Positions 379 to 64,000 of a stretch of DNA of 64,000 nucleotides are shown in pieces. Source of the DNA: an uncultured Elusimicrobia bacterium (lineage in GTDB: Bacteria; Elusimicrobiota; Elusimicrobia; Elusimicrobiales; Elusimicrobiaceae); the NCBI GenBank assembly GCA_947306425.1, contig CAMZGO010000008.1, forward strand, positions 105-64,104, written 5' to 3'. The notes under the pieces were generated by a model. That model saw nothing but the letters and a program-made list of their open reading frames with translations. It was not told the origin of the DNA and ran no database searches. A program made the position numbers and the translations under genes. The number at the start of each line of letters is the position of its first letter. The stretch's first letter is position 1.

Positions 379-450
379 TTTTTTCTTAAATATCTGCAAA
401 AATAACAATAGTATGTTCCTTTTTTGGTAAAATATATTAGGGGAGATATT

Positions 451-19709: not shown

Positions 19710-19752
19710 CCAAAATTCGGGGTTTTCCAAAAATTTTTAGCAGTATTTGCTT

Positions 19753-30317: not shown

Positions 30318-30325
30318 AAAATCTC

Positions 30326-33553: not shown

Positions 33554-33555
33554 AA

Positions 33556-34560
33556 CTATATTTTACCTTTTCTTACAGGCAGGCACAAAGCCCCCATAAT
33601 TAAAATTATAGCAAGTGCAAGCGGTATTTGATAGCGGGTTTTATAAACAACGGTATCGGTCGTTTTAGTAAGGCTCTTATCTAAAGAACGAAGTTGTACT
33701 GCAATACTGTCTGCTACTTGCTGCGCGCTAGTATACTTTATATAGGCCCCGCCTGTCTTAGAGGCAAGGTCTATTAATGTCTTTTCATCTAATTTAGTTA
33801 AAACCGTTTTGCCTGTTTTATCTTTTTTATATTCTGTTCCGGAAGATGTCTTAATCGGTATAAGTTCCCCCTCTTCCGTACCTATACCTACAGATATTAT
33901 TTTTATTCCGGCTTCCCTTGCGGTTTTAAGGGCATCTTCTATATCTTGCGGGTTATGGTCTTCTCCGTCGGTAACAAGTACAAGCGCCTTTACGCCGCTG
34001 TAAGGGCCGAGCATACGCGCGGCAAGGTTTATAGTCGGCGATAACGCAGTACCTGTTATGGGAAGCATATTTATTTTTAATTGCTCGCTTAAATTTTTAA
34101 GTGCATTTAAATCGGTCGTAATAGGGCAAAGCATATATGCCTGAGAAGTAAAAGCAATCAAACCAAGACGTTCTTGTGTAATTTCCTCAAAAAGCATTTT
34201 CAGCATAGTTTTTGCATTTGCAAGACGGTTCGGTTTAAAATCCTGTGCCTGCATTGACAGGGAAACATCCAAAGCAATTACTGCTTGAGAGTATACTGCA
34301 ACATTTTCACGCCTTTCTTTTCCCCATTGGAGCCCGGCTAAAGCAATAAATAAACAGAAAACACCGCTTAAAAATAAGATATCTTTTAAACGCCTTCTGA
34401 ATTTAAATTCCGGCGGTGTTAAAAGGGAAAAATTTGTTTTAGAAAAGAGCGTTGACAACACTGATTTCCGACGCAAAAAACCAAGCCGCCAAAAAAATGC
34501 TATCAAAATTGCGGTTAAGATTAAATAAAAAAATATTTTTATATTTGCAAACAGTTCCAT
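33556..34560 (-). CDS. batB: BatB-like von Willebrand factor A domain membrane protein
   Basis: N-terminal TMs and a VWA MIDAS motif (LDVSLSM). Confidence 0.83.
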   Translation of the reverse strand: MELFANIKIFFYLILTAILIAFFWRLGFLRRKSVLSTLFSKTNFSLLTPPEFKFRRRLKDILFLSGVFCLFIALAGLQWGKERRENVAVYSQAVIALDVSLSMQAQDFKPNRLANAKTMLKMLFEEITQERLGLIAFTSQAYMLCPITTDLNALKNLSEQLKINMLPITGTALSPTINLAARMLGPYSGVKALVLVTDGEDHNPQDIEDALKTAREAGIKIISVGIGTEEGELIPIKTSSGTEYKKDKTGKTVLTKLDEKTLIDLASKTGGAYIKYTSAQQVADSIAVQLRSLDKSLTKTTDTVVYKTRYQIPLALAIILIMGALCLPVRKGKI

Positions 34561-34566
34561 AAGCGC

Positions 34567-35694
34567 TTAAGGTATTTTAATAAAAATAAACTTCCCCCCC
34601 AAAAAAGCAAGCAAGGCAAAAAGTAAAGAAAGCCAAAGTAAATTTTGATAAGCATCCTCATAATTTAACTTTTTATCTTCGCGGTAAATTGTTTTTTCAA
34701 GTGCATTGATTTGGGTATAAATATCGTTCAGTTCGGCGGTATTTAAGGCCGTATAGGCCCGTGCACCTGTTATGTCGGCAATTTCCTGTAAAGTATTTTT
34801 TGCTTTAAGCATGTTTTCCCTGTTTGCTTTATAACTAGCTATAAGTTGATCCCGATAAGGAATATTCATTGGTAAACCGGAAATATCCCCAGCCATTAAA
34901 ATAGTGTATACTTTTATACCGTATGCAGCGGTAGCTTTAGCAGCGGCAATAGGGTCCACCGTACCGCTGTTATTTTCCCCATCCGTAACCAAAATGATAA
35001 TTTTGCTTTTTGCAATTCCGTCTTTTAAATGCTGAGTACTTACGGCTATAGCATCACCTATAGCAGTACCGCTGACGCCGCTTAACATATCCACATAAAC
35101 ATAACCCAAATATTCTTTTAGTGCAGAGTAATCCAAAGTCAAGGGGCATTGCAGCATCGCAGCACCTGAAAATACAACTATGCCAATTCTATCGCTGCTG
35201 CGGGCAGAGATAAAATCATCAACAGTCTCTTTTGCTGCAGCCATACGGTTATACAAATCCTCCGCCTTTTGGGCTTTAGTAGCCTCAAAATCAGGGGTAT
35301 TCATACTGCCGGAGACATCCAAAGTAAGCATAATATCTATTCCTTGTGTCGGCGGCGGAAGTGTTTTGCCTTCTTTTTGCGGGCGTGCAAGCGCTAAAAT
35401 AGCAAAGAATAGACATAATAATACACAAGTTAAACTAAAATATTGTGCAAGCAGGGTAGCAAAATCTTGCTGTATTTTTTGACCTGCTATAAGAGGATAT
35501 TTTACCCTCGCCCCGCCTTTAGTTTTAAGCATAAAACCCCAAAATGCCGCAAATAACCAAAGTATCAGCAAATATAAAACATTCGGGTTTGCCAATTTTT
35601 TACCATGCAAAGTAAAAAATACGCAAAGATTTAAAGCCGCAAAACACAACAAAATCAATAAAACAGGGCGCAAGTATTTAGTTATGCTTTTCAT
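34567..35694 (-). CDS. batA: BatA-like von Willebrand factor A domain membrane protein
   Basis: N-terminal TMs, a VWA MIDAS motif (LDVSGSM) and a C-terminal TM. Confidence 0.83.
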   Translation of the reverse strand: MKSITKYLRPVLLILLCFAALNLCVFFTLHGKKLANPNVLYLLILWLFAAFWGFMLKTKGGARVKYPLIAGQKIQQDFATLLAQYFSLTCVLLCLFFAILALARPQKEGKTLPPPTQGIDIMLTLDVSGSMNTPDFEATKAQKAEDLYNRMAAAKETVDDFISARSSDRIGIVVFSGAAMLQCPLTLDYSALKEYLGYVYVDMLSGVSGTAIGDAIAVSTQHLKDGIAKSKIIILVTDGENNSGTVDPIAAAKATAAYGIKVYTILMAGDISGLPMNIPYRDQLIASYKANRENMLKAKNTLQEIADITGARAYTALNTAELNDIYTQINALEKTIYREDKKLNYEDAYQNLLWLSLLFALLAFLGGKFIFIKIP

Positions 35695-36637
35695 TTCCCC
35701 CTCCTTTTAAATTATCTTTGGCTTGGTAACGGCTTAAATCTGTTTCCTTATTTTCCAAAATAATTGCTTTGGCTGTAAGCAGTGTTTTATCTCTTTCTTC
35801 CACACTTGGCACAACACGGGCGAATTTAACAAGGCCCAATTCCTGCTGAAATTTATGAAATACATTGAAATCAAATTTAAAGTCTTTTACTGTTTTTAAT
35901 TTCTTAAATAATTCGCGTGCCGTCATTTTTTGTGCTTCAAAATTAAAACGCGCAGATAGGAATTGGCGCAATATATCGGAAATTTCGGAATAATAAAGTT
36001 TATACTGATTTTTCTCCCACAAGTCACTTTGTGTTAAAATATCAAGTTGGGAGAGGGCAATCTCATGCATAGGACGTTCTTGTTTCTGATAAGGACTTAG
36101 GTTTAACGGCTGTGGTTTACTTTTTCGCTTTTTAAAATAAATAAAAGCATAAATTAAAAGCCCTATAAATAAAACAATAAATATGAACGGCCATATATTG
36201 AAAGGCCTGTATGGACCGCGGATATCAATAAGACTTGTAATTTTTGAAGATATTTCTTCAATGTCAATTTCAAGATTTTCCGTTTTTAACTTTTCACCAC
36301 CTGGGGTAATAAAACCCAAAGCAGTCAAAGTTGAGATTTGCAAATTAAGCGGTAAGACCGTTGCTTCAATTAAAAACGGGTTTTGTTTATTTGGGACTAT
36401 GGAAAGAATTTCAAAATCCTTTTGGCTGGTATTTTCCCCGTCAAAAGCAGCCGTATCTGGTAAAGTGAATGTCAATTTCAACGGCGTACCGAAAGTTGCT
36501 TTTTGTGGCTTATTATTATATTCCAAGACCTTTATATTTTCTTCCTGTTGTACAGAATCATCGGCATCTATATTTTGAGGCTGAGAAAACGCAAACAAAG
36601 GAAAAAATAAAAATACTAAAATAAAATATTTTCTCAT
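35678..36637 (-). CDS. hypothetical membrane protein, positional equivalent of the DUF4381-type gene of MoxR/Bat operons
   Basis: Signal peptide plus a central TM followed by KKRKSK. It lies between the DUF58 gene and batA. Confidence 0.55.
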   Translation of the reverse strand: MRKYFILVFLFFPLFAFSQPQNIDADDSVQQEENIKVLEYNNKPQKATFGTPLKLTFTLPDTAAFDGENTSQKDFEILSIVPNKQNPFLIEATVLPLNLQISTLTALGFITPGGEKLKTENLEIDIEEISSKITSLIDIRGPYRPFNIWPFIFIVLFIGLLIYAFIYFKKRKSKPQPLNLSPYQKQERPMHEIALSQLDILTQSDLWEKNQYKLYYSEISDILRQFLSARFNFEAQKMTARELFKKLKTVKDFKFDFNVFHKFQQELGLVKFARVVPSVEERDKTLLTAKAIILENKETDLSRYQAKDNLKGGGNEKHN

Positions 36638-37524
36638 CTTTTTAACTTCCTTGAACGGCGTTTAAAAAAACTTACCAAAGTATCAGAAACTTTATCGCCA
36701 TCTTGTATAACAATATATTCAAGCCCGCTTTTTGTAAATAACAATTTTGCTTGGTCAAGTTCTTTGACTTGTTTTCGGGTTACTTCTTCAGCACTTTTTG
36801 AGGCCAAATTAAGTAAGGTTTGTGTACCGTCCTCAAGCCCTTCAAGAGAAATGAAAACCCTCGCTTTGGGCAAAACTCTTTCAAGTTTATCTTCAACTAT
36901 TACAGGCACTAAATCAAATTTACGTGCTGTTAACTTGAAAGGTTTTGAGTAATCAAGTTCCGTCTTAAAATCTGAAATTAGAATTAAAATACCGTTGCGC
37001 CTTATCAAATGATTTATACTATCCAAAGCAAGCATAATATTTGTCCCCTTACTTGCCGGAGTAAAAGCCAAAAGTTCACGAATAATCCTAAGCACATGAC
37101 GCCGCCCCTTTTTTGGAGGTATATAAAGTTCAATTTTATCGCTGAACAGAAGCAGGCCAACCTTATCGTTATTGTGTGTGGCAGAAAAAGCAAAAACGGC
37201 TGCAAGTTCAGCTGCAATTTCGCTTTTAAGCCGTCCTAGTGAACCAAACATCAAAGAAGCAGAGACATCACAAGCAATGAGAAGGGTTAGTTCGCGTTCC
37301 TCATTAAACTTCTTGACGAAAGTAGTGCCTGTCTTCGCCGATACATTCCAATCAATACTTCTGATATCGTCACCCGGAATATATTGGCGAACTTCGGCAA
37401 ACTCTATACCTTGGCCTTTAAATATACTTAAATATTCACCGGCAAAGGTTTCCTTGACAAGTTTGCCCGTCTCAATTTCTATGCGACGAACGCGTTTTAA
37501 AATTTCTGCCGTATCCATAGGCAC
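36634..37524 (-). CDS. DUF58 domain protein
   Basis: GDDIRSIDWNVSAKTG motif. It follows moxR, as is typical. Confidence 0.85.
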   Translation of the reverse strand: MPMDTAEILKRVRRIEIETGKLVKETFAGEYLSIFKGQGIEFAEVRQYIPGDDIRSIDWNVSAKTGTTFVKKFNEERELTLLIACDVSASLMFGSLGRLKSEIAAELAAVFAFSATHNNDKVGLLLFSDKIELYIPPKKGRRHVLRIIRELLAFTPASKGTNIMLALDSINHLIRRNGILILISDFKTELDYSKPFKLTARKFDLVPVIVEDKLERVLPKARVFISLEGLEDGTQTLLNLASKSAEEVTRKQVKELDQAKLLFTKSGLEYIVIQDGDKVSDTLVSFFKRRSRKLKR

Positions 37525-37532
37525 CCGCTCAG

Positions 37533-38516
37533 TTATGGTACTTCTATTGTAGCAAAGAGTTTTTCAATTATCTCTTCTGTAGTAACATTTTCCGCTTCAG
37601 CTTCGTAGGTAAGTAAAATTCTATGCCTTAATACATCGGGGCCTATTTCTTTTATATCTTCCGGCGTAACATAACCGCGCCCCTCCAAAAAGGCATAGGC
37701 CTTTGCGGCTTTTGTTAAGAAAATTGATGCACGCGGGCTTGCACCGTATAGAATATACGGGGCCAAACCTTCAAGTTTATAATCTTTCGGATAACGTGTT
37801 GCAAAAACCAAATTTAAGATATAATCTTTAACTTTCTCATCCACATAAATATTATCCGCGACTTGACGTGCCTTTAAGATTTGTTCAAGCATAATTCTTC
37901 CGGATACTTTTGGTGTATTAGCAGTTGACATCCTTTCCAAAATCTGCCTTTCTTCTAGTTTTGAAGGATAAGCAATATTTATTTTAAGCATAAACCTATC
38001 CACTTGTGCTTCAGGTAAAGGATAAGTTCCCTCTTGTTCAACGGGGTTTTCGGTAGCAAGAACCATAAACGGTTCTGGAAGTTTATACGTTTCTTCCCCG
38101 ATAGTAACTTGGCGTTCTTGCATGGCCTCTAGCAATGCACTTTGAACTTTCGCCGGAGAACGATTAATTTCATCTGCCAAAACCAAGTTCGCAAATACCG
38201 GGCCTTTTCTAACCGAAAAAGTGCCTTCTTTAGGGTTAAAAATCAAAGTACCTGTTACATCGGCAGGTAACAAATCCGGCGTAAATTGTATACGCTGGAA
38301 AGAACAACTTATAATTTCCGCTAATGTTTTGACTGTTAATGTTTTCGCAAGGCCGGGCACACCCTCAATTAAAATATGCCCATCAGCAATAAGGGCAACA
38401 AGCATTTTGTTTACTAAATCCTCTTGCCCGACAATTACTTTTGCAATTTCCTGTTTTAAATCCTGCAAAAATAAACTTTCTTTTTGAACTTCCTGATTTA
38501 TTTCCGTTATATTCAT
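37533..38516 (-). CDS. moxR: MoxR-family AAA+ ATPase
   Basis: GVPGLAKT Walker A, LADEINR Walker B, AAA_3 pattern. Confidence 0.93.
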   Translation of the reverse strand: MNITEINQEVQKESLFLQDLKQEIAKVIVGQEDLVNKMLVALIADGHILIEGVPGLAKTLTVKTLAEIISCSFQRIQFTPDLLPADVTGTLIFNPKEGTFSVRKGPVFANLVLADEINRSPAKVQSALLEAMQERQVTIGEETYKLPEPFMVLATENPVEQEGTYPLPEAQVDRFMLKINIAYPSKLEERQILERMSTANTPKVSGRIMLEQILKARQVADNIYVDEKVKDYILNLVFATRYPKDYKLEGLAPYILYGASPRASIFLTKAAKAYAFLEGRGYVTPEDIKEIGPDVLRHRILLTYEAEAENVTTEEIIEKLFATIEVP

Positions 38517-38533
38517 CTTACCCCCCTATAATC

Positions 38534-39190
38534 TTAAATATACTGACCGATCTCTCCTTGATCTTTTTTATCAACTTTATTTTCTTCACTGATTTTGACG
38601 TTAAGACCGTCTTTATACCACTTTTGTTCTGCTAAACTATCTGCTAATTGTTTAGCTGTTTGCGCTAAAATCAAATTATCACTTGAAACAGCATTATTTA
38701 TGGTTTGTGCTACCTCTGGCGTACGATATGTCGACAAAACATTTAGCAAATTAGCCCTTTCAAGAAGTTCATCTTGATAAAAGGATAACAACATCTTTAA
38801 AGTTTGTTTATCTTTATATAAGGTAAGCAACTTGAATATTTTAGCACGATCCTCCGGCAAAGTGAACATCTTCAAATATTCCCTTATCAATGTTTCTGCT
38901 TCCCCGGCACCGCTTGAATACGCAATATCTATGAAAGCAAAGCAAATTTCAGGGTCATAAGTCATAAAAACATTTTCCTTTACTTTACCGAAAGAATTTA
39001 AGTTGTTATATTTAAATCCTCTCCGATTAGCAGCGATATCAGGTATAAAATTTTGGTCTACGCCGGCAGCAACATTGGAAATTAAATCCTTAGGTGTAAT
39101 ATCTGCTTTAGATAATGCGGTAGTTGTTCCCCCCCAAAATACAAAATAACCAGCAACGACCACTACAAATAAAAATAGAATTTGTTTCAT
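38534..39190 (-). CDS. hypothetical membrane-anchored protein
   Basis: N-terminal TM. In operon 17 nt upstream of moxR. Confidence 0.55.
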   Translation of the reverse strand: MKQILFLFVVVVAGYFVFWGGTTTALSKADITPKDLISNVAAGVDQNFIPDIAANRRGFKYNNLNSFGKVKENVFMTYDPEICFAFIDIAYSSGAGEAETLIREYLKMFTLPEDRAKIFKLLTLYKDKQTLKMLLSFYQDELLERANLLNVLSTYRTPEVAQTINNAVSSDNLILAQTAKQLADSLAEQKWYKDGLNVKISEENKVDKKDQGEIGQYI

Positions 39191-43282: not shown

Positions 43283-43758
43283 TTTTCTCTCCTCTTTTCT
43301 TCTTTTAAAAATGCTAAAGCAATCAGGGCTGCACCTACACATATTGAACTATCGGCTACATTAAAAACAGGCCAAAAGTGAAAATCTAAAAAATCCACTA
43401 CATACCCTAAAACTATTCTATCATAAATATTGCCCAAAGCGCCTGCAAAAATTAGAACATAACCGTATTTAGCTAATTTACCCATGGTCAAAATATCTTT
43501 CCGCCACTTAACCATGAGAATTAACACCGCAATACTTACAAACAACAAAAACAAATTGGAATTTTGAAATAATCCAAAGGCGGAGCCGGTATTTTCCACG
43601 TAAGTTAAACTAAAAAAAGGCAAAATTTGTACGCTTGCTCTTGGAAGTAAAAATCTCAAAGCAAGAATTTTTGTAAACAAATCCAAAGATAATATAACAG
43701 CAAATAAAACAATTTCCGTCTTATGTTTACTTTCCAAAAACAAGCGTTTTGAAAACAT
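43279..43758 (-). CDS. lspA: lipoprotein signal peptidase II
   Basis: FNVADSSICVGAALI motif and four TMs. It follows ileS. Confidence 0.9.
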   Translation of the reverse strand: MFSKRLFLESKHKTEIVLFAVILSLDLFTKILALRFLLPRASVQILPFFSLTYVENTGSAFGLFQNSNLFLLFVSIAVLILMVKWRKDILTMGKLAKYGYVLIFAGALGNIYDRIVLGYVVDFLDFHFWPVFNVADSSICVGAALIALAFLKEEKRREK

Positions 43759-46586
43759 TATTTATTTTCCTCTAATACTTTAGCACAGCGCGGGCATAAA
43801 TCCGAATATTTTGGGTTTTGCCCCAAATCCTCGTGCCATTGCCAGCAACGCGCACACTTTGAACCTAAAGCATGCAATACTTTTATACTTAGAGGTTCTT
43901 TTGTTTCCCCGTCGTCAACTTCTGCCTGAGAAACGATAGCCACCTCCGGCCAAAATTTAAGGGTCTGCTTCAAAAATTCCTTTGTTTCTTTATCGGAAGA
44001 ATTAAATATTATTTTTGCTTCAAGCGGTGCACCGATTAAACCATTTTGGCGGGCTTCCTCAAGTGCTTTTAGGACTTGGGGACGAATATCGGTTATCTTA
44101 TTCCAACGTACTAAAACTTCCTCTGGGCAAATATAACTTGCTTTTTCAGGCATATTACTTAAAAATACGCTTTCTTCAAGATAAGTACCGAGCGGCAATT
44201 TTTTGAGTTCTTGCCAAACTTCTTCCGCCGTAAAACACAATACCGGCGCAAGCAACTTAACTAAAGCCAAGACTGTTTCCGCAAGAACTGTTTGTGCGGA
44301 ACGCCTGCTTTGTGCTTCAGTACCGATAGTGTAAAGGCGGTCCTTTGAAGCATCAAGCATTAAAGAAGAAAGGTCTAGTATACAAAAATCAGTAATTTTA
44401 CGAACTGCTTTCCTAAATTCAAAATTCCTGTATGCTTCCAAAACCTCTTTAATTAGATTGTCCAAGCGGGCCATCATATACTTATCAAGTTCTGTCAAAT
44501 TTGCCCCAACTACAGTATGTTTCATTGGATCGAAATCATATAAATTACCTAAAGCATAGCGCAAAGTATTTCTGATTTTACGGTAACTTTCAATAGGGCC
44601 GGCCAAAATCTCTTGAGAAATCCGGACATCTTCGCTATAATCGGTAAAACTTACCCACATACGCAAAATATCTGCACCGTATTTATTTGTTATTTCGTCC
44701 GGTTCAATACTATTGCCGGCCGATTTATGCATAGCCCTGCCTTGTTGGTCCAAAATCATACCATGGGTTAAAACATTTTTGAAAGGTGCTTTATCTTCCA
44801 AAACAGTACCCGCAATAAGCGAAGTTTGAAACCAACCGCGATGTTGGTCTGAACCTTCTAAATATACTTGTGCCGGGTAACCAAGACCGCGATATTTTAG
44901 AACCTCTGCCCAAGATACACCGGAATCAAACCAAACATCTAAAATATCTTTTTCTTTTGTAAATTCTTTACAACCGCAAGAGCAAGTATGACCGGCAGGT
45001 AAAATTTCTTCGGCAGATTTCTCAAACCAAAAATCGCTGCCTTCCTTTAAGGCCCGCTCTTTTATGGCTTTTATGACCTCGGGTTCAACTTGCATTTTAC
45101 CGCATTTTTTGCAATAGAAAACCATTATCGGTACACCCCAAAAACGCTGGCGGCTTAAACACCAATCCGGGCGTTGTTCCACCATGGAAGTTATACGTCT
45201 TTCTCCTGTTTGGGGATACCATTTTGTATTTTTTATTTCTTCAATAAGTTTTTGTCTTAAATTGTCTTTGTCTACTGATAAGAACCATTGTTCCGTTGAG
45301 CGGAAAATAATTGGTTTCTTACATCTCCAACAATGCGGATAAGAGTGGGTAATATCTTCCTGTTTTAGCAAGAACCCAATTTCTTTGAGTTTTTCAATTA
45401 TGAGAGAATTAGCTTTAAAAATATGCTGTCCGGCGAATTCGCCTGCATCTTCGGTAAAAATACCTTTTGCATCAACAGGGCAAAGGCAGGGCAAATCCCA
45501 AGCAAGACCTGCCTTAAAATCATCCTCGCCATGGCCGGGAGCGATGTGTACTATACCGACGCCGGTATCCATAGTAACGAAATCAGTATAAATAACAGGG
45601 TTTTCCTTACTGTTAAGCGGATGATAATATTTTAAACCGACTAAATCTTCCCCCTTTATAGTGGAAAAAGTTGCGGCTTCCAATCCTATATTTTTTAGAA
45701 AACTATCAGCAAGCTTTTCCGCTGCGATTAAGTAAGTGCCGTCGGGCATAGACATTATGCGGTAATCCTCATCTTTTGCAACGGCTGCAGCCTGGTTTGC
45801 AGGAATAGTCCAAGGGGTTGTGGTCCAAACTGCTAAATATACGGGTTTATCTTCTAAATTATGTAATTTTTCAGATGGATTTACAAGTTTGAAGCGCAAA
45901 TAAATTGAAGTTGAGACTTTATCATGATACTCGGTTTCAGCATCAGCCAAAGCAGTTTCACAATTTGGACACCAATAAATTGCTTTTTTACCCTTATAGA
46001 CATAACCCTTTTCAAGTGCATCAAAAAAGGCGGAAACAGTTAAGCCCTCATAGACATTAGACATTGTAAGGTAAGGATTATCCCAATCGGCAGTAACACC
46101 AAGCCGCTTAAAACCCTCGCGTTGAATATTGACAAAATTTTGAGCGAACTCCCTTGCACGTTTTCTGAACGCAGGTATATCTTTTACATCCCGTTTGTCA
46201 ATTTTCATTTCTTTTAAGAGGGCTTGCTCTATCGGCAAACCATGACAATCCCAACCGGGAATATAAGGGCTGTGATATCCCATCATTGTATGGGATTTAG
46301 TGATAATATCTTTCAAAATTTTATTAAAAGCATGCCCCATGTGTATACGGCCGTTTGCATAAGGCGGACCGTCCGCTAAAATAAACTTTTCATTTTTATT
46401 GGTTTTATCAAGCATTTTTTGATAAAGTTTAATTTCGTTCCAATAGGCAAGCGTTTGCGGTTCTTTTTTAGCAAGGCCGGCCCTCATAGGAAAATCGGTT
46501 TTAGGAAGTAAAACCGTGTGGGAATATTTATTTTTATTTTCTGTTTTAATTTCTGTTTTATTTACTGTTCTTTTAATTTCGCTCAT
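43758..46586 (-). CDS. ileS: isoleucine--tRNA ligase
   Basis: HMGH and KMSKS-type (AMHKSAGN) motifs. C-terminal zinc-binding CxxC pairs. 942 aa. Confidence 0.97.
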   Translation of the reverse strand: MSEIKRTVNKTEIKTENKNKYSHTVLLPKTDFPMRAGLAKKEPQTLAYWNEIKLYQKMLDKTNKNEKFILADGPPYANGRIHMGHAFNKILKDIITKSHTMMGYHSPYIPGWDCHGLPIEQALLKEMKIDKRDVKDIPAFRKRAREFAQNFVNIQREGFKRLGVTADWDNPYLTMSNVYEGLTVSAFFDALEKGYVYKGKKAIYWCPNCETALADAETEYHDKVSTSIYLRFKLVNPSEKLHNLEDKPVYLAVWTTTPWTIPANQAAAVAKDEDYRIMSMPDGTYLIAAEKLADSFLKNIGLEAATFSTIKGEDLVGLKYYHPLNSKENPVIYTDFVTMDTGVGIVHIAPGHGEDDFKAGLAWDLPCLCPVDAKGIFTEDAGEFAGQHIFKANSLIIEKLKEIGFLLKQEDITHSYPHCWRCKKPIIFRSTEQWFLSVDKDNLRQKLIEEIKNTKWYPQTGERRITSMVEQRPDWCLSRQRFWGVPIMVFYCKKCGKMQVEPEVIKAIKERALKEGSDFWFEKSAEEILPAGHTCSCGCKEFTKEKDILDVWFDSGVSWAEVLKYRGLGYPAQVYLEGSDQHRGWFQTSLIAGTVLEDKAPFKNVLTHGMILDQQGRAMHKSAGNSIEPDEITNKYGADILRMWVSFTDYSEDVRISQEILAGPIESYRKIRNTLRYALGNLYDFDPMKHTVVGANLTELDKYMMARLDNLIKEVLEAYRNFEFRKAVRKITDFCILDLSSLMLDASKDRLYTIGTEAQSRRSAQTVLAETVLALVKLLAPVLCFTAEEVWQELKKLPLGTYLEESVFLSNMPEKASYICPEEVLVRWNKITDIRPQVLKALEEARQNGLIGAPLEAKIIFNSSDKETKEFLKQTLKFWPEVAIVSQAEVDDGETKEPLSIKVLHALGSKCARCWQWHEDLGQNPKYSDLCPRCAKVLEENK

Positions 46587-48251: not shown

Positions 48252-48292
48252 AGAAACCGCAATACTGTTTCAATAATGGTTGTTTTATTCCA

Positions 48293-48778
48293 CTACACAA
48301 AAGTATTAGTAGCAAAAATGTGAGTACACCAGTTTATTTTTTGTTTTGTGCCGCCAAAATAATTATTTGATAAATAGTTTTTGAATAGCAAATCAGAAAG
48401 GTCAGTTTCTGTTTTGTGTAAAATATTTTTTACTTCACAAAGTAAACGAAAATATTTATCTCGTTCACAATTCTTTAGAATAATTTTTCCGTTTTTCAAA
48501 AAATTTTCCGTTATTGTTTTTGCCCGTTTTGCGGCAACTTTTTCACACTTATTTTTTGTTTTTAGTTCGGGAGTATCAATATTCTTTACGCGTACTGATA
48601 TTTTATCGCAAAATATTGGATATTGGCAAGGTAAAGATACAGTGAAAGTATCTCCGTCATATACCGAAATAATTTTGACATCATAAAAATCTTGCACAGG
48701 TTTTGCAAATAAAAGATTTGTTAAAAATAATAAGCAAAAAATTATTAAACCTTTATTTTTTACGATAAAAACGGCCAT
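48293..48778 (-). CDS. secreted staphylococcal-nuclease-like (SNase/thermonuclease) protein
   Basis: DGDTFTV...VRVKNIDTPE...ERDKYFRLL pattern. Start placed at M22 (signal peptide MAVFIVKNKGLIIFCLLFLTNLLFA). The start is uncertain because none of the candidate ATGs has a clear RBS. Confidence 0.7.
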   Translation of the reverse strand: MAVFIVKNKGLIIFCLLFLTNLLFAKPVQDFYDVKIISVYDGDTFTVSLPCQYPIFCDKISVRVKNIDTPELKTKNKCEKVAAKRAKTITENFLKNGKIILKNCERDKYFRLLCEVKNILHKTETDLSDLLFKNYLSNNYFGGTKQKINWCTHIFATNTFV

Positions 48779-48790
48779 AATTACTTTATG

Positions 48791-48911
48791 AACGCAAAAA
48801 CCCATAAAATAAAAATAGCCGTAGTCCTCTAACGAGGACATTTGGCATAAACCAAAGGGTTTATAAAGTCCTTTGATTTATACCTAACTAGCTATTCTTG
48901 GTTTTTGCGTT
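48791..48911 (-). ncRNA. structured leader / candidate cis-regulatory RNA upstream of the nuclease gene
   Basis: 12-bp closing helix 48791-48802 / 48900-48911 and a 6-bp helix 48814-48819 / 48891-48896. Two hairpins: 48824-48829/48834-48839 and 48847-48858/48870-48881. The single mismatch in the last hairpin is a G-U pair only on the minus strand. Confidence 0.3.
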
Positions 48912-49144
48912 GTCTTTATGAGTAAGACCCACAAAGACGGTTTCTTTTTTCAAAAGAATCCAAAAATAGAATAAAAAGTCGCAAAACGACTGTACATTGT
49001 AATTATACAAAAATTATCGGATGAAAGTTAAAATTTAGAAACATAATAATAACACATAAATTAAGTACCAATTGCAATAAAATTTCCCCGTTCCGCGTTT
49101 AATAATTGTAAAATATACTTAGTTGTTTTTGCCCGGAGGAGTAA

Positions 49145-50425
49145 ATGAAAAAGTCTTTAACTATTGTTTTGTCCTTACTTTTATCTGCTGCTTTATCGGC
49201 ACAAAATATAGATGGTACAAATTTACAAGAACAGAAATTAACTTTAGAGGATTGCATAAATTTAACACTGCAAAATAACCCGGAAATTGCTGCTTCTTAT
49301 TCCACACAGGAAGCGCAAAAGAGCCAATTAAAACAAAGTAAATCAAATTATTTTCCTCAAATAAACGGCAGCGCCGGTTATAACCGCTCAAACAGTAACT
49401 CCGCCCAAGGTAACAGCGGAACAAATAACAATTATTCCGCTTCAGTTAATGCTACACAACTTATTTATGATTTCGGGCAGACGAGTTCAACCGTAGGTAT
49501 ACAAGAAAAGTCTTATCAAAGTGCAGTGCAAAATACAACCGCTTTAATTAATGACAAAATTTATGCTTTAAAGGTCGCTTATTATGCGGTATTATCTGCG
49601 GAAGAATCAGAAAATGTTTACAAACAGTCCGTAGAACAATATACAGAACAATTAAAACGCGCAAAGGCATTTTATGAAGTGGGAACATATCCTAAAATTG
49701 ATGTAACTTCAGCGCAAGTAAATTTAAATGATTCAAAATTGAATTTATTAACCGCCCAAAATTTAGTAAAAACAAGACGGCAAGAACTTTTAAATGTGAT
49801 GGGTATATCAGACCCAAACCCCACTTTTAGTTTGGAAATGACAGATGTTTTACCCCCCTTTGAACTTACCTTAGAAGAGGCCTTAAAAGAAGCCAATAAA
49901 AACAGGCCCGATTTGCTTTCAAAACAACTGCAAGTTGAAAGTGCAAGACAAAATGTAACACTGGCTAAAACCGGCTTTGCACCAACCCTTACCGCAAACG
50001 GAACTTATGTTTGGAGCGGGGCAGAATTTCCCCTCTATGACCGTTGGTCAGCAGGTGCGAATTTAAATGTCCCTATTTTTAGCGGTCTTAGCACCTATAA
50101 TAAAGTTGAACAGGCAAAACAAAATCTTCAAACATCCTACAGCAATTTAACTGCTTTAGAGCAAAAAATTTTGCTTGAAGTTAAAACCGCTTATCTTGCT
50201 TTAAATAATGCAAAGGAACGTATACCCGTTGCCGAACTTACAAAAGAGCAGGCAAAAGAAAGTTATGATTTGGCCGTCGGCAGATATAAGGTCGGTGTAG
50301 GAAATTATATTGAAGTAAAAGATGCGGAAACCTCTTACAGTAAGGCAAAACTTTCCTATATTGAAGCGGTTTTTGATTACAATTTGGCAGTTGCAAAATT
50401 AAAAAATTCAATAGGAACAAGATAA
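49145..50425 (+). CDS. tolC: TolC-family outer membrane efflux protein
   Basis: Signal peptide and two OEP repeats. Confidence 0.87.
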   Translation: MKKSLTIVLSLLLSAALSAQNIDGTNLQEQKLTLEDCINLTLQNNPEIAASYSTQEAQKSQLKQSKSNYFPQINGSAGYNRSNSNSAQGNSGTNNNYSASVNATQLIYDFGQTSSTVGIQEKSYQSAVQNTTALINDKIYALKVAYYAVLSAEESENVYKQSVEQYTEQLKRAKAFYEVGTYPKIDVTSAQVNLNDSKLNLLTAQNLVKTRRQELLNVMGISDPNPTFSLEMTDVLPPFELTLEEALKEANKNRPDLLSKQLQVESARQNVTLAKTGFAPTLTANGTYVWSGAEFPLYDRWSAGANLNVPIFSGLSTYNKVEQAKQNLQTSYSNLTALEQKILLEVKTAYLALNNAKERIPVAELTKEQAKESYDLAVGRYKVGVGNYIEVKDAETSYSKAKLSYIEAVFDYNLAVAKLKNSIGTR

Positions 50426-50433
50426 GGAGAATT

Positions 50434-51588
50434 ATGAAATTAATTAAGAAAAAATATGCAATAATCGCAATCATTGTAACAGTATGTGCGGCTATATTTT
50501 TGCTAAAGGGATGCAAAAACGGCAAGGCCGCAAATTACCGTATTGAAAATCCGCGCCGGGCAAAAATAGTACAAACGGTTGAAGCGTCAGGTACCATTAA
50601 CCCCGTTACACAAACAAGTGTAGGAACACAAATTTCCGGCAGGGTAGAACAAATTTTCGTTGATTATAATTCTATTATCAAGAAAGGACAATTACTTGCA
50701 GTTATTGACCCTTCTACTTATCAATCAAATGTAATTCAGCAAGAAGCGAATTTACAAAAACTTGAAAGTATTTTCAAAAATGCCAAACGTAATTATGAAA
50801 GATACAAAAAATTATATTCCCAAGAACTTGTCGCAAAAAGCGAACTTGATAATGCGGAGATGGATTACCTTTCCGCCAATGCCCAAATGGTGCAAGGGCG
50901 CGCAAGTTTGGATAAAGCAAAAATTGATTTGAGTTATACAAATGTCGTTTCCCCGGTAGACGGAATAGTAATTTCAAAGGAAGTGGAATTGGGGCAAACT
51001 GTCGCAGCAAGTTACCAAACGCCTACTTTATTTTTAGTAGCCGAAGATTTAACAAAAATGCAGATTGAAGTTAATATTTCAGAGGCTGATATAAGCAAAA
51101 TTAAAGAGGGTCAAAAAGTTAATTTTAATATTGATGCGTACCCGACAACTACCTTTGAAGGCCAGGTAAGCCAAGTGAGAAATGCCGCCACCACTATTTC
51201 AAATGTTGTTACTTATACTGTTGTTGTTTCCGTTGATAATAGTGAATTACTGCTTAAACCCGGTATGACGGCAAATGTGGCAATAATTACCGCCGAAGTA
51301 AATGATGCCTTAAGTGTTCCGAATCAAGCCTTACGTTTTGTACCACCTGATAATGCAAAAATATCCGGCGATAAAGCAGGGCAGCGCAAGAACTTTAAAG
51401 GGCAGGGTTTATGGCGGCAACATAGGGACGGCTCTATTTATATAACAGAAGTAAAAACAGGAATAACAGACGGTAATAAAACTGAAATTATTTCCCAAGA
51501 AATAACTGAAAATACACCCATAATAGTTGCTAGCGAAAATACAAAAAGTAAAAACGGCAACCGCCGTATGGGGCCACCGGGATTTTAA
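50434..51588 (+). CDS. MacA/HlyD-type periplasmic adaptor
   Basis: N-terminal TM, biotinyl-lipoyl-like and coiled-coil hairpin pattern (VGTQISGRVEQIFVD...LLAVIDPS). Confidence 0.87.
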   Translation: MKLIKKKYAIIAIIVTVCAAIFLLKGCKNGKAANYRIENPRRAKIVQTVEASGTINPVTQTSVGTQISGRVEQIFVDYNSIIKKGQLLAVIDPSTYQSNVIQQEANLQKLESIFKNAKRNYERYKKLYSQELVAKSELDNAEMDYLSANAQMVQGRASLDKAKIDLSYTNVVSPVDGIVISKEVELGQTVAASYQTPTLFLVAEDLTKMQIEVNISEADISKIKEGQKVNFNIDAYPTTTFEGQVSQVRNAATTISNVVTYTVVVSVDNSELLLKPGMTANVAIITAEVNDALSVPNQALRFVPPDNAKISGDKAGQRKNFKGQGLWRQHRDGSIYITEVKTGITDGNKTEIISQEITENTPIIVASENTKSKNGNRRMGPPGF

Positions 51589-51602
51589 AAGCAGAGGGCA
51601 AA

Positions 51603-52307
51603 ATGTCTTTAATAAAAGTTGAACATATTTGGAAAATTTATAATCTTGGCGATATTCCGCTTGAAGTGCTTAAAGATGTAAGTTTAACTATTGATGCCGG
51701 TGAATTTGTGGCAATTATGGGGCCGTCAGGTTCAGGTAAAAGTACTTTTATGAATATGCTTGGCTGCCTTGATAAACCCACAAAAGGTACTTATATTTTA
51801 GACGGCATAAACATAACAAATTCTACTTTAAGCGAACTTGCAGATATTAGGTGCCGCAAAATCGGTTTCGTGTTTCAGGGGTTTAATTTAATTGCAAGAA
51901 CAAGCGCCATAGAAAATGTTGAACTGCCGATGATTTATGCGCATATTCCTTCTGAAGAACGCGTGCAAAAAGCAAAAAAAGCATTAAAAGAAGTGGGGCT
52001 TGAAAACCGCTTGGACCATACACCAAACCAACTTTCCGGCGGTCAACAGCAAAGAGTTGCAATCGCGCGCGCTATCGTAAATGATGCACCGATAATTTTT
52101 GCCGACGAGCCAACCGGCAACCTTGACACAAAAACCAGCATTGAAGTTATGGAAAGTTTTTATAAGTTAAATGAAGAAAAAAATAAAACAATTATTCTTG
52201 TTACTCATGAACCGGACATCGCCGCATACGCAAAAAGAATTGTACGTTTTAAAGACGGTGTTATCGTAAGTGATGAGCAAAATAAAAATAGGACAAAACC
52301 ACAATGA
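51603..52307 (+). CDS. MacB/LolD-type ABC transporter ATP-binding protein
   Basis: GPSGSGKST Walker A, LSGGQQQRVAIARA signature, IIFADEPTGNLD Walker B. Confidence 0.93.
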   Translation: MSLIKVEHIWKIYNLGDIPLEVLKDVSLTIDAGEFVAIMGPSGSGKSTFMNMLGCLDKPTKGTYILDGINITNSTLSELADIRCRKIGFVFQGFNLIARTSAIENVELPMIYAHIPSEERVQKAKKALKEVGLENRLDHTPNQLSGGQQQRVAIARAIVNDAPIIFADEPTGNLDTKTSIEVMESFYKLNEEKNKTIILVTHEPDIAAYAKRIVRFKDGVIVSDEQNKNRTKPQ

Positions 52308-53539
52308 TTGATTTTTTAACTATCTTAAAAATTGCCTTAAAGGCGCTTTGGGTAAACAAAATGCGTTCGGTTTTAACTAGTTTGGGCATAATTATCGGTG
52401 TAGCGGCGGTTATTGTTATGCTTGCAGTCGGCGAGGGAAGTAAAAAGCGTATTTCTGACCAAATGTCCAGCATGGGCAGTAACTTGCTTATGATACGTTC
52501 CGGTTCTGTTACTTCAAGCGGTGCACGGGCAGGGCAAGGCGCACAGCCGACGCTTACTTTAAAAGATTCTGAGGCTATTGCAAAAAATGCCCAACATATT
52601 GCACAAGTTGCGCCAAGTGTTAGTTCAACGGCACAAATTGTTTACGGCAATCAAAATTGGTCTACAAGAATTACGGGGACTACCCCCTCCCTCTTTTACA
52701 TTCGTTCTTGGGAAGTTGATAACGGTGCGCTTTTTACTGATGATGAGGTCCGCCAAGGGGCAAGTGTCGCAATTTTGGGTGAAACTGTGGTGGAAAATTT
52801 GTTCGGTGTCCTTGACCCAATCGGAAAAACCGTCCGCATAAATAATGTACCTTTTAAAGTGGCGGGTGTTTTAAAATCACTTGGGCAAAATGCCATGGGT
52901 ACGGATCAAGATGATACCGTAATTGTGCCTATAACAACAGCAATGAAACGTTTATCAGGTTCACAATTTCAAGGAACGGTAAATAATATTATGGTGCAGG
53001 CACTTTCCACCGATGATTTAGCCGCTGCGGAAGAAGAAATTACACTTCTGCTCCGCCAACGCCATAATATTACCGGTAAAAAACAAGATGATTTTATCAT
53101 TCGCAATTTAACACAAATGATGGAAAGCGCCATGGAAGCAAATGAAACTTTTAGTTTACTGCTTGCCGCGATTGCATCAATTTCTTTGCTTGTCGGCGGC
53201 ATTGGTATTATGAATATTATGCTTGTATCTGTAACGGAAAGAACGCGCGAAATCGGCATCCGTATGGCTATTGGCGCAAAGATGTGGGATATACGCCTTC
53301 AGTTTTTAGTGGAAGCGCTTGTTCTATCTTTAACAGGCGGCTTGCTTGGGATAATTTTAGGGCTTTCCGTTGCTTTGTTTATTAAGAATTTTACACCGGA
53401 CTTTTTACCAATCAGCATAACTATTACCCCGATGGTAATTTCTTTTGCATTTTCCGGTTTAGTGGGAATTTTCTTTGGGTTTTATCCGGCGTACAAAGCG
53501 TCTATGCTCAACCCAATTGACGCCTTAAGGTTTGAGTAA
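52304..53539 (+). CDS. MacB-type ABC transporter permease (MacB_PCD + FtsX)
   Basis: N-terminal TM, periplasmic domain and a C-terminal FtsX-type 3-TM bundle. 4-nt overlap with the ATPase gene. Confidence 0.9.
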   Translation: MIDFLTILKIALKALWVNKMRSVLTSLGIIIGVAAVIVMLAVGEGSKKRISDQMSSMGSNLLMIRSGSVTSSGARAGQGAQPTLTLKDSEAIAKNAQHIAQVAPSVSSTAQIVYGNQNWSTRITGTTPSLFYIRSWEVDNGALFTDDEVRQGASVAILGETVVENLFGVLDPIGKTVRINNVPFKVAGVLKSLGQNAMGTDQDDTVIVPITTAMKRLSGSQFQGTVNNIMVQALSTDDLAAAEEEITLLLRQRHNITGKKQDDFIIRNLTQMMESAMEANETFSLLLAAIASISLLVGGIGIMNIMLVSVTERTREIGIRMAIGAKMWDIRLQFLVEALVLSLTGGLLGIILGLSVALFIKNFTPDFLPISITITPMVISFAFSGLVGIFFGFYPAYKASMLNPIDALRFE

Positions 53540-53540
53540 A

Positions 53541-56500
53541 CTAAAATTTTTCTGAAAATAAATCAAGCCAATTTGCTTTATAATCTTCCGGGGTTGTTGC
53601 AAAAGCTTCTAAATCTAATGCTTTACCGATTTTAACTTGCGGAGCATTAATACCTGCCATTTCATAAAGCGCGTAAACAATAGCCAAATTAGCAGAAGCA
53701 CTACCTCGATAAAACGGCTTTGCATTTGTAAAAATGTAACTGATTTCGGATATATTATTATGCAATATATCTAAATCATCTTCGGTCAACTTTCCCCCTT
53801 GTTGTACATGCTCAATAATAGGTTTAATAAGATTATAATCTTCTTGTATAACCTTAAATGCGGCATCAATATTATTATGATAGACATCGCCATAATTATC
53901 TCTCTTAACTCCCGCCGGATGAGACATCTGATTTACCATGGAACCTAATTCTTCTAAATCAATACGAGTCAAAATAACTCCTTTAAAAGCGTGGGGCCTT
54001 CTATTTTTTGCAGTCCTTAAAAAATCATCCTGATATTCTGCATATGCATTTTCATGAAAACGTGTGTAAAACTCAATTGGCGTATTAGCTAAAATACCAA
54101 AGACAATATCATCAGATAAAGGTCCAAATTCTGATCCCATAAAATCACTAGGAGCAGATTTTTCATTCAGTGAATTGGCCATACCGTACTGCATCGGCCT
54201 CTCAATATATTCCCACATAATTTCATTAGATTCATTGTGTTTTTCCAAAAATAACTTTATTTGATTTATTTTTTTATGATAAAGAAAGATCTTTTTTCCC
54301 ATGTTTTTTACCGCTTCTTCTATACTTTTGCCTAACATTAAGTCCTGTTCAAAATTTTCTGTTATATCTTTCATAGTATAAACATATAAAGGATTAGTAC
54401 CCGGAAATTTAGATTTTTCTTCGCTCGGCAAAGTGGTTTCGTAACGGTCAGAATATTTGATAAGTTCATCGAATTCTTGAGGACTATCAATAGCCATTTG
54501 CCTAAGATTTTTATTGTAATACTTTTGCCAATCTTTATAAAAATCTACCCCCACAATTTCTTGCATTTTTTGGCTTTCTTCTAAGTTTAAGGGTTTACCG
54601 CTGAAAATTCCCGGAACAAATTGTTTGCGTGAATTAATAAATTTTTCCACTTCGCTTTCAAATTTCGGTACCGGCATTTTGATACTTCCCACAAGCGGTA
54701 CGGTTGCTAAAGCAAACGGCAAAGTTACAGGGTTTAACAAACTAAAAGCAAACAAACCGACACCGACGGCAGGCAAAACCCAACCCGGTAATTTAGATAA
54801 AAGTGAATTATTTTCTGCATCAGAATTGGTTTGATTTTTTACCGGTGTTTCAACAGTTATCATATTGTCAGTCGGTTGCAAAATAACTTCGCCGTTATTA
54901 TCCAAACTCGCGCGCCACCAACCGATTTTGCCGTCTAACTGCGCCCATACTAAAACATCCAAAATACTTTCTGCACCTATATTGCCTGTTATTACTTCTT
55001 GAGTATCTTGAAACCTACCGTCAGATTTAACTTTAACCACAACAGGGGCTATTCCGCCGAGTTCAAAGCGTTTGGCAAAACTTACGGCAAAATCTGCGTT
55101 CGGCGTCAAGTAATTTATACCTTCTTGTGTTTTGCCTACAGATAAACCATATTTCAAAACATCTTGTAGTTCGCCGTAAGAATGTAATACTATACCTCTG
55201 TATAAAGATAATTTATCTCTAAAACCTTCAGGCAACAAGTCCCTCATTTTCCCTCTAGTGGCTTTTATATTTTTTACGATATTATCTTTGTAATCCCATG
55301 TAAAAATATTTTTAGCTGAAAAAGTTACTGTTTTTAGATTTAAAGGCTTTTCATCAGGGGTAGATTTTTCTTTTGCACCGATATCTTCCAGGCCTAAACG
55401 AATTCTGTTTAGTTCATAAATATCATTATGATTCAAATCAAAATACTCAAAATCTATTATAGTTACAATAAGTTTTCCATTTTCATCACGTCTAAAAAAT
55501 ATATTATTCCATAAATCAGTATGATAAAAACCTTCTGCATTTAAATCTTTAACAAAATTTACAATTTGTTCCCATTCTTCATTTGTTATCTTAACACCTC
55601 TTAACGCAGCCATTGCTTCTGCACCTACTTTGGATATATTACCACGAATTATAACTTCCCAATTATCAACAATATTAACATACAATTTGTCTTGTAACGT
55701 AAAACCGGAAGTATTTACCGGTGACATTATCATATAACGTCTAAGCCAACTACATCTCTTTTTGACTTCATTTGCTATTTCATCCGATAAATCAGATAAA
55801 TTTGTTGACAACACTGTCGGACTTTCAACACCTATCAAAGGATATCTAGATGCAAATTTTTCTTTAAGAGTACTAAAGAGTTTTGTCCTGCTTATTTCGT
55901 CCGTTCCTGTTTCTATTCCTTTATCAGATATTCCTGTATAGTAGGCCTTTACCTCGTTATCAGAACCTATTAATTTCCCAACTGGAAATCTAACTTCCAC
56001 CACTTTCTTAATATCCGTTTTAAGGTTTAAGGGGTTTTCAGAATTTATTTTTTGCGTTAAGCTAGGTCTGTTAAAACTTGCCAAAAACGGTAAAGCTGCT
56101 AAAGCCATAGCGGGTTCTACTGCACCGTTAATGAGCGCCGTTAAACCCAAACCGATACCCAAAGCCGGCATTATTAAAGATTTAAAAGAAAATTTATTTA
56201 AAACAACAATATTTTTTGATTTGTAAATTTCATTTTTAGGTAACAGTAATTCTTTTATTTCTGTTCTAGTCTTATTTGCGATAGGATTATGAGGATCAGA
56301 ATAATCAAGCATTATTTGATAATTAGTTGCCATATCCCCATCAATAACATAAAAATGGAAATGATATCTCGGTGCATCATTAGATAAAGAATATTCATGC
56401 CGCGCAATACGAACTATTTTATTACTATCATTACTGTATAAGCGAAGAACATTCCATCGGTCAATAAATAAGGCATAAGCAGGGTTTTGGGGTGTCGCAT

Positions 56501-64000: not shown

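Follow-up and report, generated by a model that had tools for sequence, protein, structure and literature searches.

The giant gene at the edge of the window

The stretch of DNA analyzed here, 64,000 nucleotides of contig CAMZGO010000008.1 from an uncultured bacterium of the family Elusimicrobiaceae (hereafter the window), ends within a giant gene on the minus strand. Translation of the window yielded an open reading frame (ORF) at 53541-63998, which comprises 3,485 sense codons and a stop codon at 53541-53543 and takes up 16.3% of the window, in keeping with the uninterrupted minus-strand frame occupying 16% that had been described in a first-pass annotation of the sequence. It had also been noted there that the frame is still open at nucleotide 64000, and there is indeed no stop codon upstream before the window edge, which truncates the 5' end of the gene; the frame as originally given was, however, 2 nt out of register, and the visible frame correctly starts at 63998. 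The region encodes the C-terminal part, at least 3,485 residues, of a giant protein that is lineage-specific and hypervariable and comes from a rumen bacterium of the Elusimicrobiaceae. The visible protein consists of four A, five B, two C and one D modules together with six H linkers, the self-similarity of which was determined by blastp for each module and the borders by hidden Markov models (HMMs). These borders agree to within ~10 nt with the module order and coordinates first proposed, and the residues at the window edge, which had been recognized as the beginning of an A module, belong to an A module cut by that edge (the first 44 visible residues). The features are as follows, with residues of the visible protein given in amino acids (aa).

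53541-63998, minus strand: giant ORF, 5' end cut by the window edge
62982-63998, minus strand: A1, AvrB/XopAH-type Fido module, aa 1-339; its initial ~36 residues lie beyond the window edge
62466-62942, minus strand: B1, predicted R-S-E ADP-ribosyltransferase (ART)-fold module, aa 353-511
62304-62399, minus strand: H1, core of hydrophobic bilobed linker, aa 534-565
61698-62180, minus strand: B2, predicted ART-fold module, aa 607-767
61554-61652, minus strand: H2, linker core, aa 783-815
60501-61535, minus strand: A2, AvrB-type Fido module, aa 822-1166
59658-60380, minus strand: C1, predicted Kdo/WaaP-type minimal protein-kinase module, aa 1207-1447
59097-59570, minus strand: B3, predicted ART-fold module, aa 1477-1634
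58947-59045, minus strand: H3, linker core, aa 1652-1684
57870-58946, minus strand: A3, AvrB-type Fido module, aa 1685-2043
57360-57836, minus strand: B4, predicted ART-fold module, aa 2055-2213
57216-57314, minus strand: H4, linker core, aa 2229-2261
56184-57215, minus strand: D, orphan module, aa 2262-2605
56076-56174, minus strand: H5, linker core, aa 2609-2641
55359-56045, minus strand: C2, predicted Kdo/WaaP-type kinase module, aa 2652-2880
54852-55328, minus strand: B5, predicted ART-fold module, aa 2891-3049
54684-54779, minus strand: H6, diverged linker core, aa 3074-3105
53544-54671, minus strand: A4, AvrB-type Fido module, aa 3110-3485, C-terminal, with the stop codon directly after it
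49145-53539, plus strand: convergent operon of TolC, membrane-fusion protein (MFP), ABC ATPase and MacB-FtsX permease, ending 1 nt from the stop codon of the giant gene

There is clear evidence that the giant gene is real. A frame of 3,485 codons in DNA with a GC content of 33-37% cannot be due to chance, and the ORF does not depart in base composition from the remainder of the window. Repeat collapse and mis-assembly were considered and rejected based on the DNA of the repeat copies being mutually 60-82% identical and the longest exact direct repeat in the ORF being 38 nt. Such an error is also unlikely given that ~9 other, independently assembled metagenome-assembled genomes (MAGs) agree, with uninterrupted frames of 1,300-3,664 codons made of the same blocks. 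The broader concern, that repeats were wrongly assembled into the ORF or that it is a pseudogene in decay, and so not one functional gene, stems from the source being a short-read metagenome, from the contigs of the source species often ending within the giant gene and from the module arrangement not being the same across samples. We consider it highly improbable, since in addition to the divergence of the copies and the frames in the ~9 independent MAGs, which stay open over 1,300-5,786 codons, 10.4 kb of AT-rich DNA runs without a stop codon and nearly all module copies keep their catalytic residues.

Enzyme-like modules of the giant protein

The four A copies are 41-53% identical to one another (E 1e-78 to 1e-124; these and the module identities below are from blastp within the window protein). 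Their similarity to AvrB and XopAH is confined to the C-terminal ~170 residues (Pfam, NCBIfam), where the Pfam AvrB_AvrC model scored 68.4 bits against a cut-off of 23.2, summed over four stretches and mainly at profile positions 241-324, and the NCBIfam XopAH/AvrB model scored 94 bits, below its curated cut-off of 220. The N-terminal ~190 residues are family-specific and gave no alignment to AvrB. A single-sequence search of the Protein Data Bank (PDB) with A found nothing; a 15-copy A profile matched the AvrB structures 1nh1 and 8two (E=0.012 over 70 residues), with the A motifs P-F-x-R-G-S-A and L-D-L aligned opposite AvrB residues R266, G267, A269 and D297. These four residues contact the beta-phosphate and rhamnose of UDP-rhamnose in AvrB, in which the substitutions R266A and D297A abolish rhamnosylation of RIN4 (Peng et al., PMC10866546). 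R-G-S-A is present in 14 of the 15 A copies (K-G in the remaining one) and the aspartate in all 15, and because these cosubstrate contacts are so consistently kept, A is probably an active AvrB-type Fido transferase, and probably one that depends on a nucleoside diphosphate sugar (NDP-sugar) or a nucleotide. In common with the type III effectors AvrB, AvrC and XopAH of Pseudomonas and Xanthomonas, A has the homologous C-terminal ~170 residues and retains the R-G that binds the diphosphate as well as the A and D residues that contact the sugar. It differs from them in occurring at least four times in a giant chain, in a non-plant bacterium and with no evident type III secretion system, no genes for which were found in the window or in the fetched loci of relatives. 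A literature search found no paper linking Elusimicrobia with AvrB.

The five B copies are 37-50% identical and had no sequence match in Pfam, NCBIfam or the PDB (the last searched with a single sequence and with a profile). An alignment of 20 copies gave an AlphaFold2 (AF2) model of B4 with a predicted local distance difference test score (pLDDT) of 93, and all of the top 20 matches of this model in a Foldseek search of the PDB were ART-fold proteins, at modest scores (E 1e-3 to 5e-2, template modeling [TM] score ~0.4). The best of these include the pertussis-like PltA of E. coli and Salmonella, pertussis S1, the Rhs toxin TreX and Tpt1/KptA; lower in the list are the ART-fold toxins CARDS toxin, pierisin and scabin. 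Residues in the positions of an R-S-E triad are conserved as well: an arginine (YRG) on the first core strand of the model (beta1) in 19 of 20 copies; YF[ST] or FFAS in most copies, the Ser/Thr of which ends the second strand (beta2) and is followed by a helix; and a single acidic residue (E or D) before VLVW, at the start of a later strand (beta5), again in 19 of 20. A strict ExE motif was absent among the 20 aligned copies. As modeled, B is thus predicted to fold as an R-S-E ADP-ribosyltransferase without strict ExE, and it defines a new ART-like domain family on the strength of that model.

A search of 1.84 billion representatives with the B profile returned 182 matches, which beyond the giants include proteins of 240-320 aa. 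The five of these that were retrieved have one or two B-like domains each, and four of the five start with a classic Sec signal peptide, from which we regard the stand-alone homologues as putatively exported. The four (P0031, P0040, P0017 and P0058) are small proteins made of the signal peptide and one or two B-like, ART-fold domains, and the only cluster member among the stand-alone homologues with a named source is from Elusimicrobiaceae. Together they form a B-related family of putative exported ADP-ribosyltransferases that has no annotation.

Module C, the two copies of which are 35% identical, matched the Pfam Kdo family PF06293 at 44.7 bits (cut-off 21.3) in two stretches, and seven to eight of nine copies have the motif HxDLxxN of a catalytic loop followed by the metal-binding IDFE. 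Searched against the PDB, the C profile gave just weak generic kinase matches and did not recover HopBF1. Based on these motifs, C is predicted to be a minimal Kdo/WaaP-type protein-kinase-like module. The results therefore support the view that three of the four module types (A, B and C) are toxin/effector-type protein-modifying enzymes. The fourth, D, occurs once in the window protein and had no match in Pfam, PDB or homologue searches; it was unrelated to B and C by hhalign, and absent from every fetched relative locus and protein.

Relatives, chromosomal slot and strain-level variation

A search of 5.8 billion sequences with the whole protein identified five relatives, all giant (2,865-5,786 aa), one of which is annotated as coming from an Elusimicrobiaceae MAG. 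When 185,579 species-representative genomes were scanned for module A, only ~9 Elusimicrobiaceae/Elusimicrobia MAGs were found, often with two to three loci each, and those with a source in the record name are ruminal (water-buffalo rumen and other ruminal). A search of related genomes for syntenic giant ORFs had been proposed at the outset, and such ORFs are present in these ~9 MAGs, mostly in the same chromosomal slot, in which ArgRS is followed by pilin-like genes, the giant gene and a convergent MacB/ABC/MFP/TolC operon. The operon lies downstream of the giant gene in the window and in four relatives' loci (L001, L003, L004 and L029), with the convergent MacB permease, and not an immunity gene, next to the giant in each of the four. 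In the window the stop codons of the MacB-type permease (plus strand, ending at 53539) and the giant gene (minus strand, 53541-53543) are one nucleotide apart, which leaves no room for a terminator between the convergent genes, and the corresponding gap in relatives is 50-340 nt. A functional link to the MacAB-TolC operon was considered and rejected, as the operon is convergent and of the wrong ABC type for a substrate of 400-600 kDa and, while syntenic in most loci, is absent beside P0004, P0074 and P0015. The Type IV pilin-like (N_methyl) genes immediately upstream of giants (L001 8729-9827, L003 9312-9770 and L027 1360-2924) recur in the fetched loci, which may be a coincidence or reflect a functional link.

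The loci of the relatives hold uninterrupted frames of A, B, C and H, in an order that is different in each genome but follows one cassette grammar, H-[A]-[C]-[B]-H, with H always ahead of a cassette. In full-length relatives the chain opens with a Sec-type signal peptide and a conserved head of about 900 residues or more; the head has one transmembrane segment, followed by a very basic stretch and an H-like bilobed element, after which comes a receiver domain. The head of P0001 had no match in the PDB. There are additional cassettes in relatives, including a receiver domain, zeta-toxin/AAA_33 kinases, a GDSL lipase and trypsin-like peptidases, and two relatives embed a complete major facilitator superfamily (MFS) transporter within the chain. 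Other giants with the same head and with B, C and trypsin-like modules have no H linkers. The family has no conserved C-terminal signal, members ending in A, B or C modules, and the PADLOC defence models gave no match. In P0005, one A module is followed by ~1,600 residues (aa 1259-2865) of tandem repeats of ~70 residues with an 'ENGRNP'-type motif, which were not seen in the window protein. P0161, an Elusimicrobiaceae protein of 4,581 aa that is named 'MFS transporter' at NCBI, is a further giant that contains an MFS transporter along with divergent B-like domains; by eye it also seems to have two regions resembling metallophosphoesterases (GNHE motifs) and bilobed hydrophobic linkers whose sequence is of another type. 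It suggests that hairpin-punctuated giants form a wider superfamily.

Contigs from other samples enabled the 3' end of the gene to be compared between strains. These contigs encode an identical MacB protein and have a flanking operon 93-99% identical to that of the window, and their alignment to the window ends exactly at the 3' end of the giant gene. The terminal cassettes have been replaced: they are ...C-B-H-A in the window and ...H-A-B-H-C or ...B-H-B-C in the other contigs, with 41-57% amino-acid identity across strains and only short mosaic DNA patches that reach 91-95%. Near-identical flanks combined with different 3' cassettes are the signature of a recombining, diversifying conflict locus. 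There is a second, small strain-variable spot between the genes for an M48 peptidase and TolC (window 48252-49071, L023 1485-2706), where L023 has a 341-aa ORF in place of the 182-aa SNase-like ORF of the window (48293-48841) and the sides are 98.6-99.2% identical.

The logic of the array had been likened in the first-pass annotation to that of MARTX and polymorphic toxins, in spite of the lack of RTX, Rhs/YD, haemagglutinin or cysteine protease domain (CPD)-type features, none of which was detected with Pfam at E<=1. The comparison is a sound one, given that A, B and C are of toxin/effector type and the locus shows strain-level polymorphic conflict behaviour; there are, however, clear differences from both groups. 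Similar to MARTX (RtxA of Vibrio and related bacteria), the protein is a modular effector array of several thousand residues that is shuffled between strains. Unlike MARTX, it has no RTX/glycine-rich repeats in the visible 3,485 aa or in relatives (Pfam, NCBIfam), no inositol-hexakisphosphate-activated cysteine protease (Peptidase_C80; Pfam at E<=1, window protein) and no dedicated type I secretion system (HlyB-type ABC, MFP and TolC), the adjacent ABC system being convergent and of MacB_PCD/FtsX type; its effectors are parted by hydrophobic linkers and not by CPD cleavage sites, and its relatives have an N-terminal Sec signal peptide. With polymorphic toxins (contact-dependent inhibition [CDI], Rhs), the giant gene shares a 3' end that differs from one near-identical strain to another, the divergence stopping sharply where the gene ends, and diversification by recombination. 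In contrast to them, no RHS/YD, FHA, PAAR, LXG or pre-toxin domains were found in the window protein or the heads of relatives (Pfam), there are many internal toxin domains and not one C-terminal tip, and the next gene, 1 nt away, is the convergent MacB permease and not an immunity gene.

Giant proteins with many toxin domains have been described previously (Zhang et al. 2012, PMC3482391), for example SACTE_5178 of Streptomyces (13,652 aa, with ARTs, caspases and metallopeptidases) and the giant toxins of Wolbachia. Like the window protein, they combine several unrelated toxin/effector domains in one polypeptide, including R-S-E ADP-ribosyltransferases, have no adjacent immunity gene and come from host-associated producers. 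The window protein differs in its AvrB-Fido, Kdo-type kinase and new ART family, in the fixed internal order of its cassettes and their conserved hydrophobic linker of 32-33 residues, and in its different head and the confinement of its family to rumen Elusimicrobiaceae. Elusimicrobia are rich in huge proteins (PMC11573180), and the Omnitrophota 'Archaeovorins' are giants in which enzymatic domains are located among numerous predicted transmembrane regions (West-Roberts et al. 2023, 10.1101/2023.11.21.568195). The latter are likewise from small host- or prey-associated bacteria, but they exceed 30,000 aa and have SecA-DEAD and carbohydrate-active or adhesion domains, whereas here there is no SecA match, the relatives measure 2,865-5,786 aa, toxin-type enzymes that modify proteins make up the modules and a single, specific conserved motif serves as the spacer. 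No characterised toxin family covered the whole architecture in the per-module profile searches that had been called for, and neither a literature description nor a curated model of it was found, which bears out the initial impression that it lies outside described families. What is new is the ART-like domain family, the AvrB-type arrays, which are the first outside plant pathogens, and the linker motif; giant multi-toxin proteins as such were already known.

The H linker and the possible role of the array

Since H1-H5 are 54-88% identical to one another (blastp), H is the best-conserved part of the protein; H6 has diverged. The six linkers are the sole hydrophobic segments of the visible protein. 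As had been pointed out from the sequence, each B is followed by an H within about 25 residues: the distance from the end of B is 10-19 residues to the H profile match and 22-25 residues to the hydrophobic core. An HMM built from the six window copies detected 27-28 copies in six proteins. In 22 cores found by pattern match, H is 30-33 residues long (nearly all 32-33), uncharged save for an occasional Glu in the loop, and flanked by sequence that is net basic on both sides (47 K/R to 15 D/E upstream, 57 to 38 downstream). The linker is bilobed and Pro/Gly-rich, with the pattern [LIV]-[LM]-P-A-[LIV]-G-[IV]-G-L-x-L-T-A-L-[IL]-N-[GP]-x-x-x-P-x-[LM]-A-L-A-x-[LV]-P-[FL]-[FL]-A-S. Five H segments searched against NCBIfam and Pfam (E<=10) gave nothing relevant, including no PEP-CTERM, LPXTG or GlyGly-CTERM sorting signals, and an H-only profile searched against 5.8 billion proteins returned one 75-aa fragment and no other protein context. 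A match in PHROGs was limited to a 17-residue hydrophobic stretch inside H5 and was dismissed. H is therefore a novel hydrophobic punctuation motif with no known counterpart. It can be compared with the Inc domain of chlamydiae, which also has two hydrophobic lobes and a short loop, with flanking soluble domains that are thought to lie on the same side, as we propose for H. Inc domains, however, have 40-60 residues and occur once per protein, in type III secretion substrates, whereas H has 32-33 residues, is Pro/Gly-rich and is repeated 6-10 times.

A polyprotein or a membrane-tethered effector array, directed at a eukaryotic or bacterial partner, had been proposed in the first-pass annotation. 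With about even confidence, we suggest that the protein is a polymorphic, polyvalent effector/toxin array that is membrane-associated through hairpins formed by H. Each cassette holds up to three predicted protein-modifying enzyme domains in the fixed order A, C, B (one cassette holding D), with H between cassettes. The head would start insertion at the cytoplasmic membrane and each H would dip into the membrane as a hairpin, by which neighbouring cassettes would stay on the same side. The basic flanks, the position of the receiver domain after the transmembrane segment and bilobed element of the head, and the embedded MFS transporters all favour an arrangement with both H flanks on the same side of the membrane. 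The cassettes would then serve as a polyvalent set of effectors or toxins against another organism; a eukaryotic cell, for example a rumen protozoon, is the most plausible opponent, with competing bacteria as the alternative. Recombinational shuffling of cassettes would renew the repertoire. A role in inter-organism conflict is favoured because of the domain types, the exported stand-alone B homologues and the strain variability, and the zeta-toxin kinase, GDSL lipase and trypsin-like modules that are added in relatives are consistent with it.

Elusimicrobia are common but poorly understood bacteria of the gut and rumen, with relatives inside the protists of termite guts, and we know of no molecular handle today on their conflict or symbiosis interface in the rumen. 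That 10-17 kb are given over to a hypervariable gene for AvrB-like, kinase and ART modules suggests that such an interface is active there, and it extends AvrB-type Fido enzymes far beyond plant pathogens. A eukaryotic target, either rumen protozoa or host cells, is suggested by the absence of immunity genes and by the fact that the members of the AvrB family studied so far act inside plant cells (PMC10866546) and that Elusimicrobia are enriched in protozoa-associated rumen fractions (PMC6217230).

Several points weigh against the proposed membrane-associated effector array. The head described above is that of relatives, as the one of the window protein lies beyond the window edge, and in the window the giant gene has no linked gene for a secretion system, a processing protease or an immunity protein. 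The ART assignment of B is based on matches with TM ~0.4 and E ~1e-3. In an AF2 model of a B-H-A junction H appeared as coil, with no helix and a pLDDT of ~32, and 32-33 residues are short for two full membrane spans. The main internal tension is that a hairpin with its flanks inside, as indicated by the positive-inside rule, the receiver domain and the MFS transporters, would place the toxin modules in the producer's own cytoplasm, which conflicts with the export of the stand-alone B homologues and leaves delivery unexplained. The topology of H could reveal a new way to tether, process or export many effectors from one chain.

The central part of H also reads as the c-region of a signal peptide followed by an A-x-A site. 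Each H could accordingly be an internal signal-peptide-like element (n-region Lys, h-region LMPALGIGLGLTALI, c-region NGAAEP-ALA) of a secreted polyprotein, the cassettes of which would be released singly outside the cytoplasm through cutting by signal peptidase I after the conserved [A/T/V]-x-A or by the trypsin-like modules present in several relatives. The aligned linkers do have an upstream basic residue, a 15-16-residue hydrophobic core, a helix-breaking G/P and a near-invariant [LM]-A-x-A, the c-region resembles that of the clade's own signal peptides (..SPAFAQ and ..TGFA), a cassette is always preceded by an H, and Sec export of the stand-alone B homologues fits such a fate. We nevertheless consider a secreted polyprotein unlikely, given that a chain under translocation would meet H in stop-transfer orientation, which makes serial internal signal peptides topologically awkward, that a signal peptide would have no use for the second lobe, ALPFFASF, which is strongly conserved, and that there are relatives with head, trypsin-like, B and C modules entirely without H.

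If the modules do stay in the cytoplasm, the protein might be a resident array on the cytoplasmic face that is never delivered, in which a periplasmic head senses and the receiver and tethered enzymes modify the producer's own proteins in abortive infection, stress-induced dormancy or signalling. This would account for the enrichment of K/R at both H flanks, the receiver domain and MFS transporter in one chain in relatives, the need of all modules for cytoplasmic cofactors (ATP, NAD+ or NDP-sugar) and the failure to find a secretion system or immunity gene nearby, and defence loci too are typically hypervariable between strains. However, the absence of matches to PADLOC defence models, the position of the locus in a conserved housekeeping slot and not in a defence island, and the export of stand-alone B domains all count against such a role; members of the AvrB family are not otherwise known except as effectors directed at a host, and five ARTs, four Fido modules and two kinases in one protein are hard to square with self-regulation. 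Our assessment is that a self-directed array is less likely again than a secreted polyprotein.

The linkers may also act together. We speculate, while regarding it as doubtful and below either of the preceding alternatives in likelihood, that they jointly form a membrane conduit or scaffold, as a hairpin bundle or a single-chain beta-barrel, through which cassettes are exported or displayed. If true, the protein would be a self-contained, single-polypeptide multi-effector delivery device, based on a secretion/translocation principle not described so far, with which rumen Elusimicrobiaceae would target protozoa or other cells. More doubtful still is that each H is a beta-hairpin, with 6-10 hairpins of one or several chains assembling into a beta-barrel that either presents the cassettes at the outer membrane or provides a pore by which they reach the target cell. 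The fixed length of 32-33 residues, the central Asn-Gly/Pro turn, the aromatic end of lobe 2 (FFASF) and the lack of a helix in AF2 are all in line with a beta-hairpin. In lobe 1 bulky and small residues alternate (L-G-I-G-L-G-L-T) and the periodicity is stronger at 160-180 degrees than at 100 degrees, but this beta-type periodicity is not significant (p=0.12), there is none in lobe 2, and the supposed lumen face is Gly/Ala and not polar. Similarly, the translocon insertion energy of H is marginal (crude Hessa sum, median +3.4 kcal/mol), but on this sum H is not separable from genuine MFS transmembrane segments. Neither a BAM/TAM-type signal nor a Pfam outer membrane protein match was found, and the copy number of H differs between proteins.

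Elsewhere in the window, a 1,143-aa fusion of MFS transporter, acyltransferase and AMP-binding enzyme (7994-11425, plus strand) has an architecture like that of LplT-Aas lysophospholipid recycling, and a long co-directional run with BatD-like and VWA-domain proteins (29305-39190, minus strand) is like a Bat aerotolerance-type operon. Housekeeping genes in the window include those for AdhE (424-3138), PolA (19747-22389), Rho (22983-24533) and IleRS (43758-46586).

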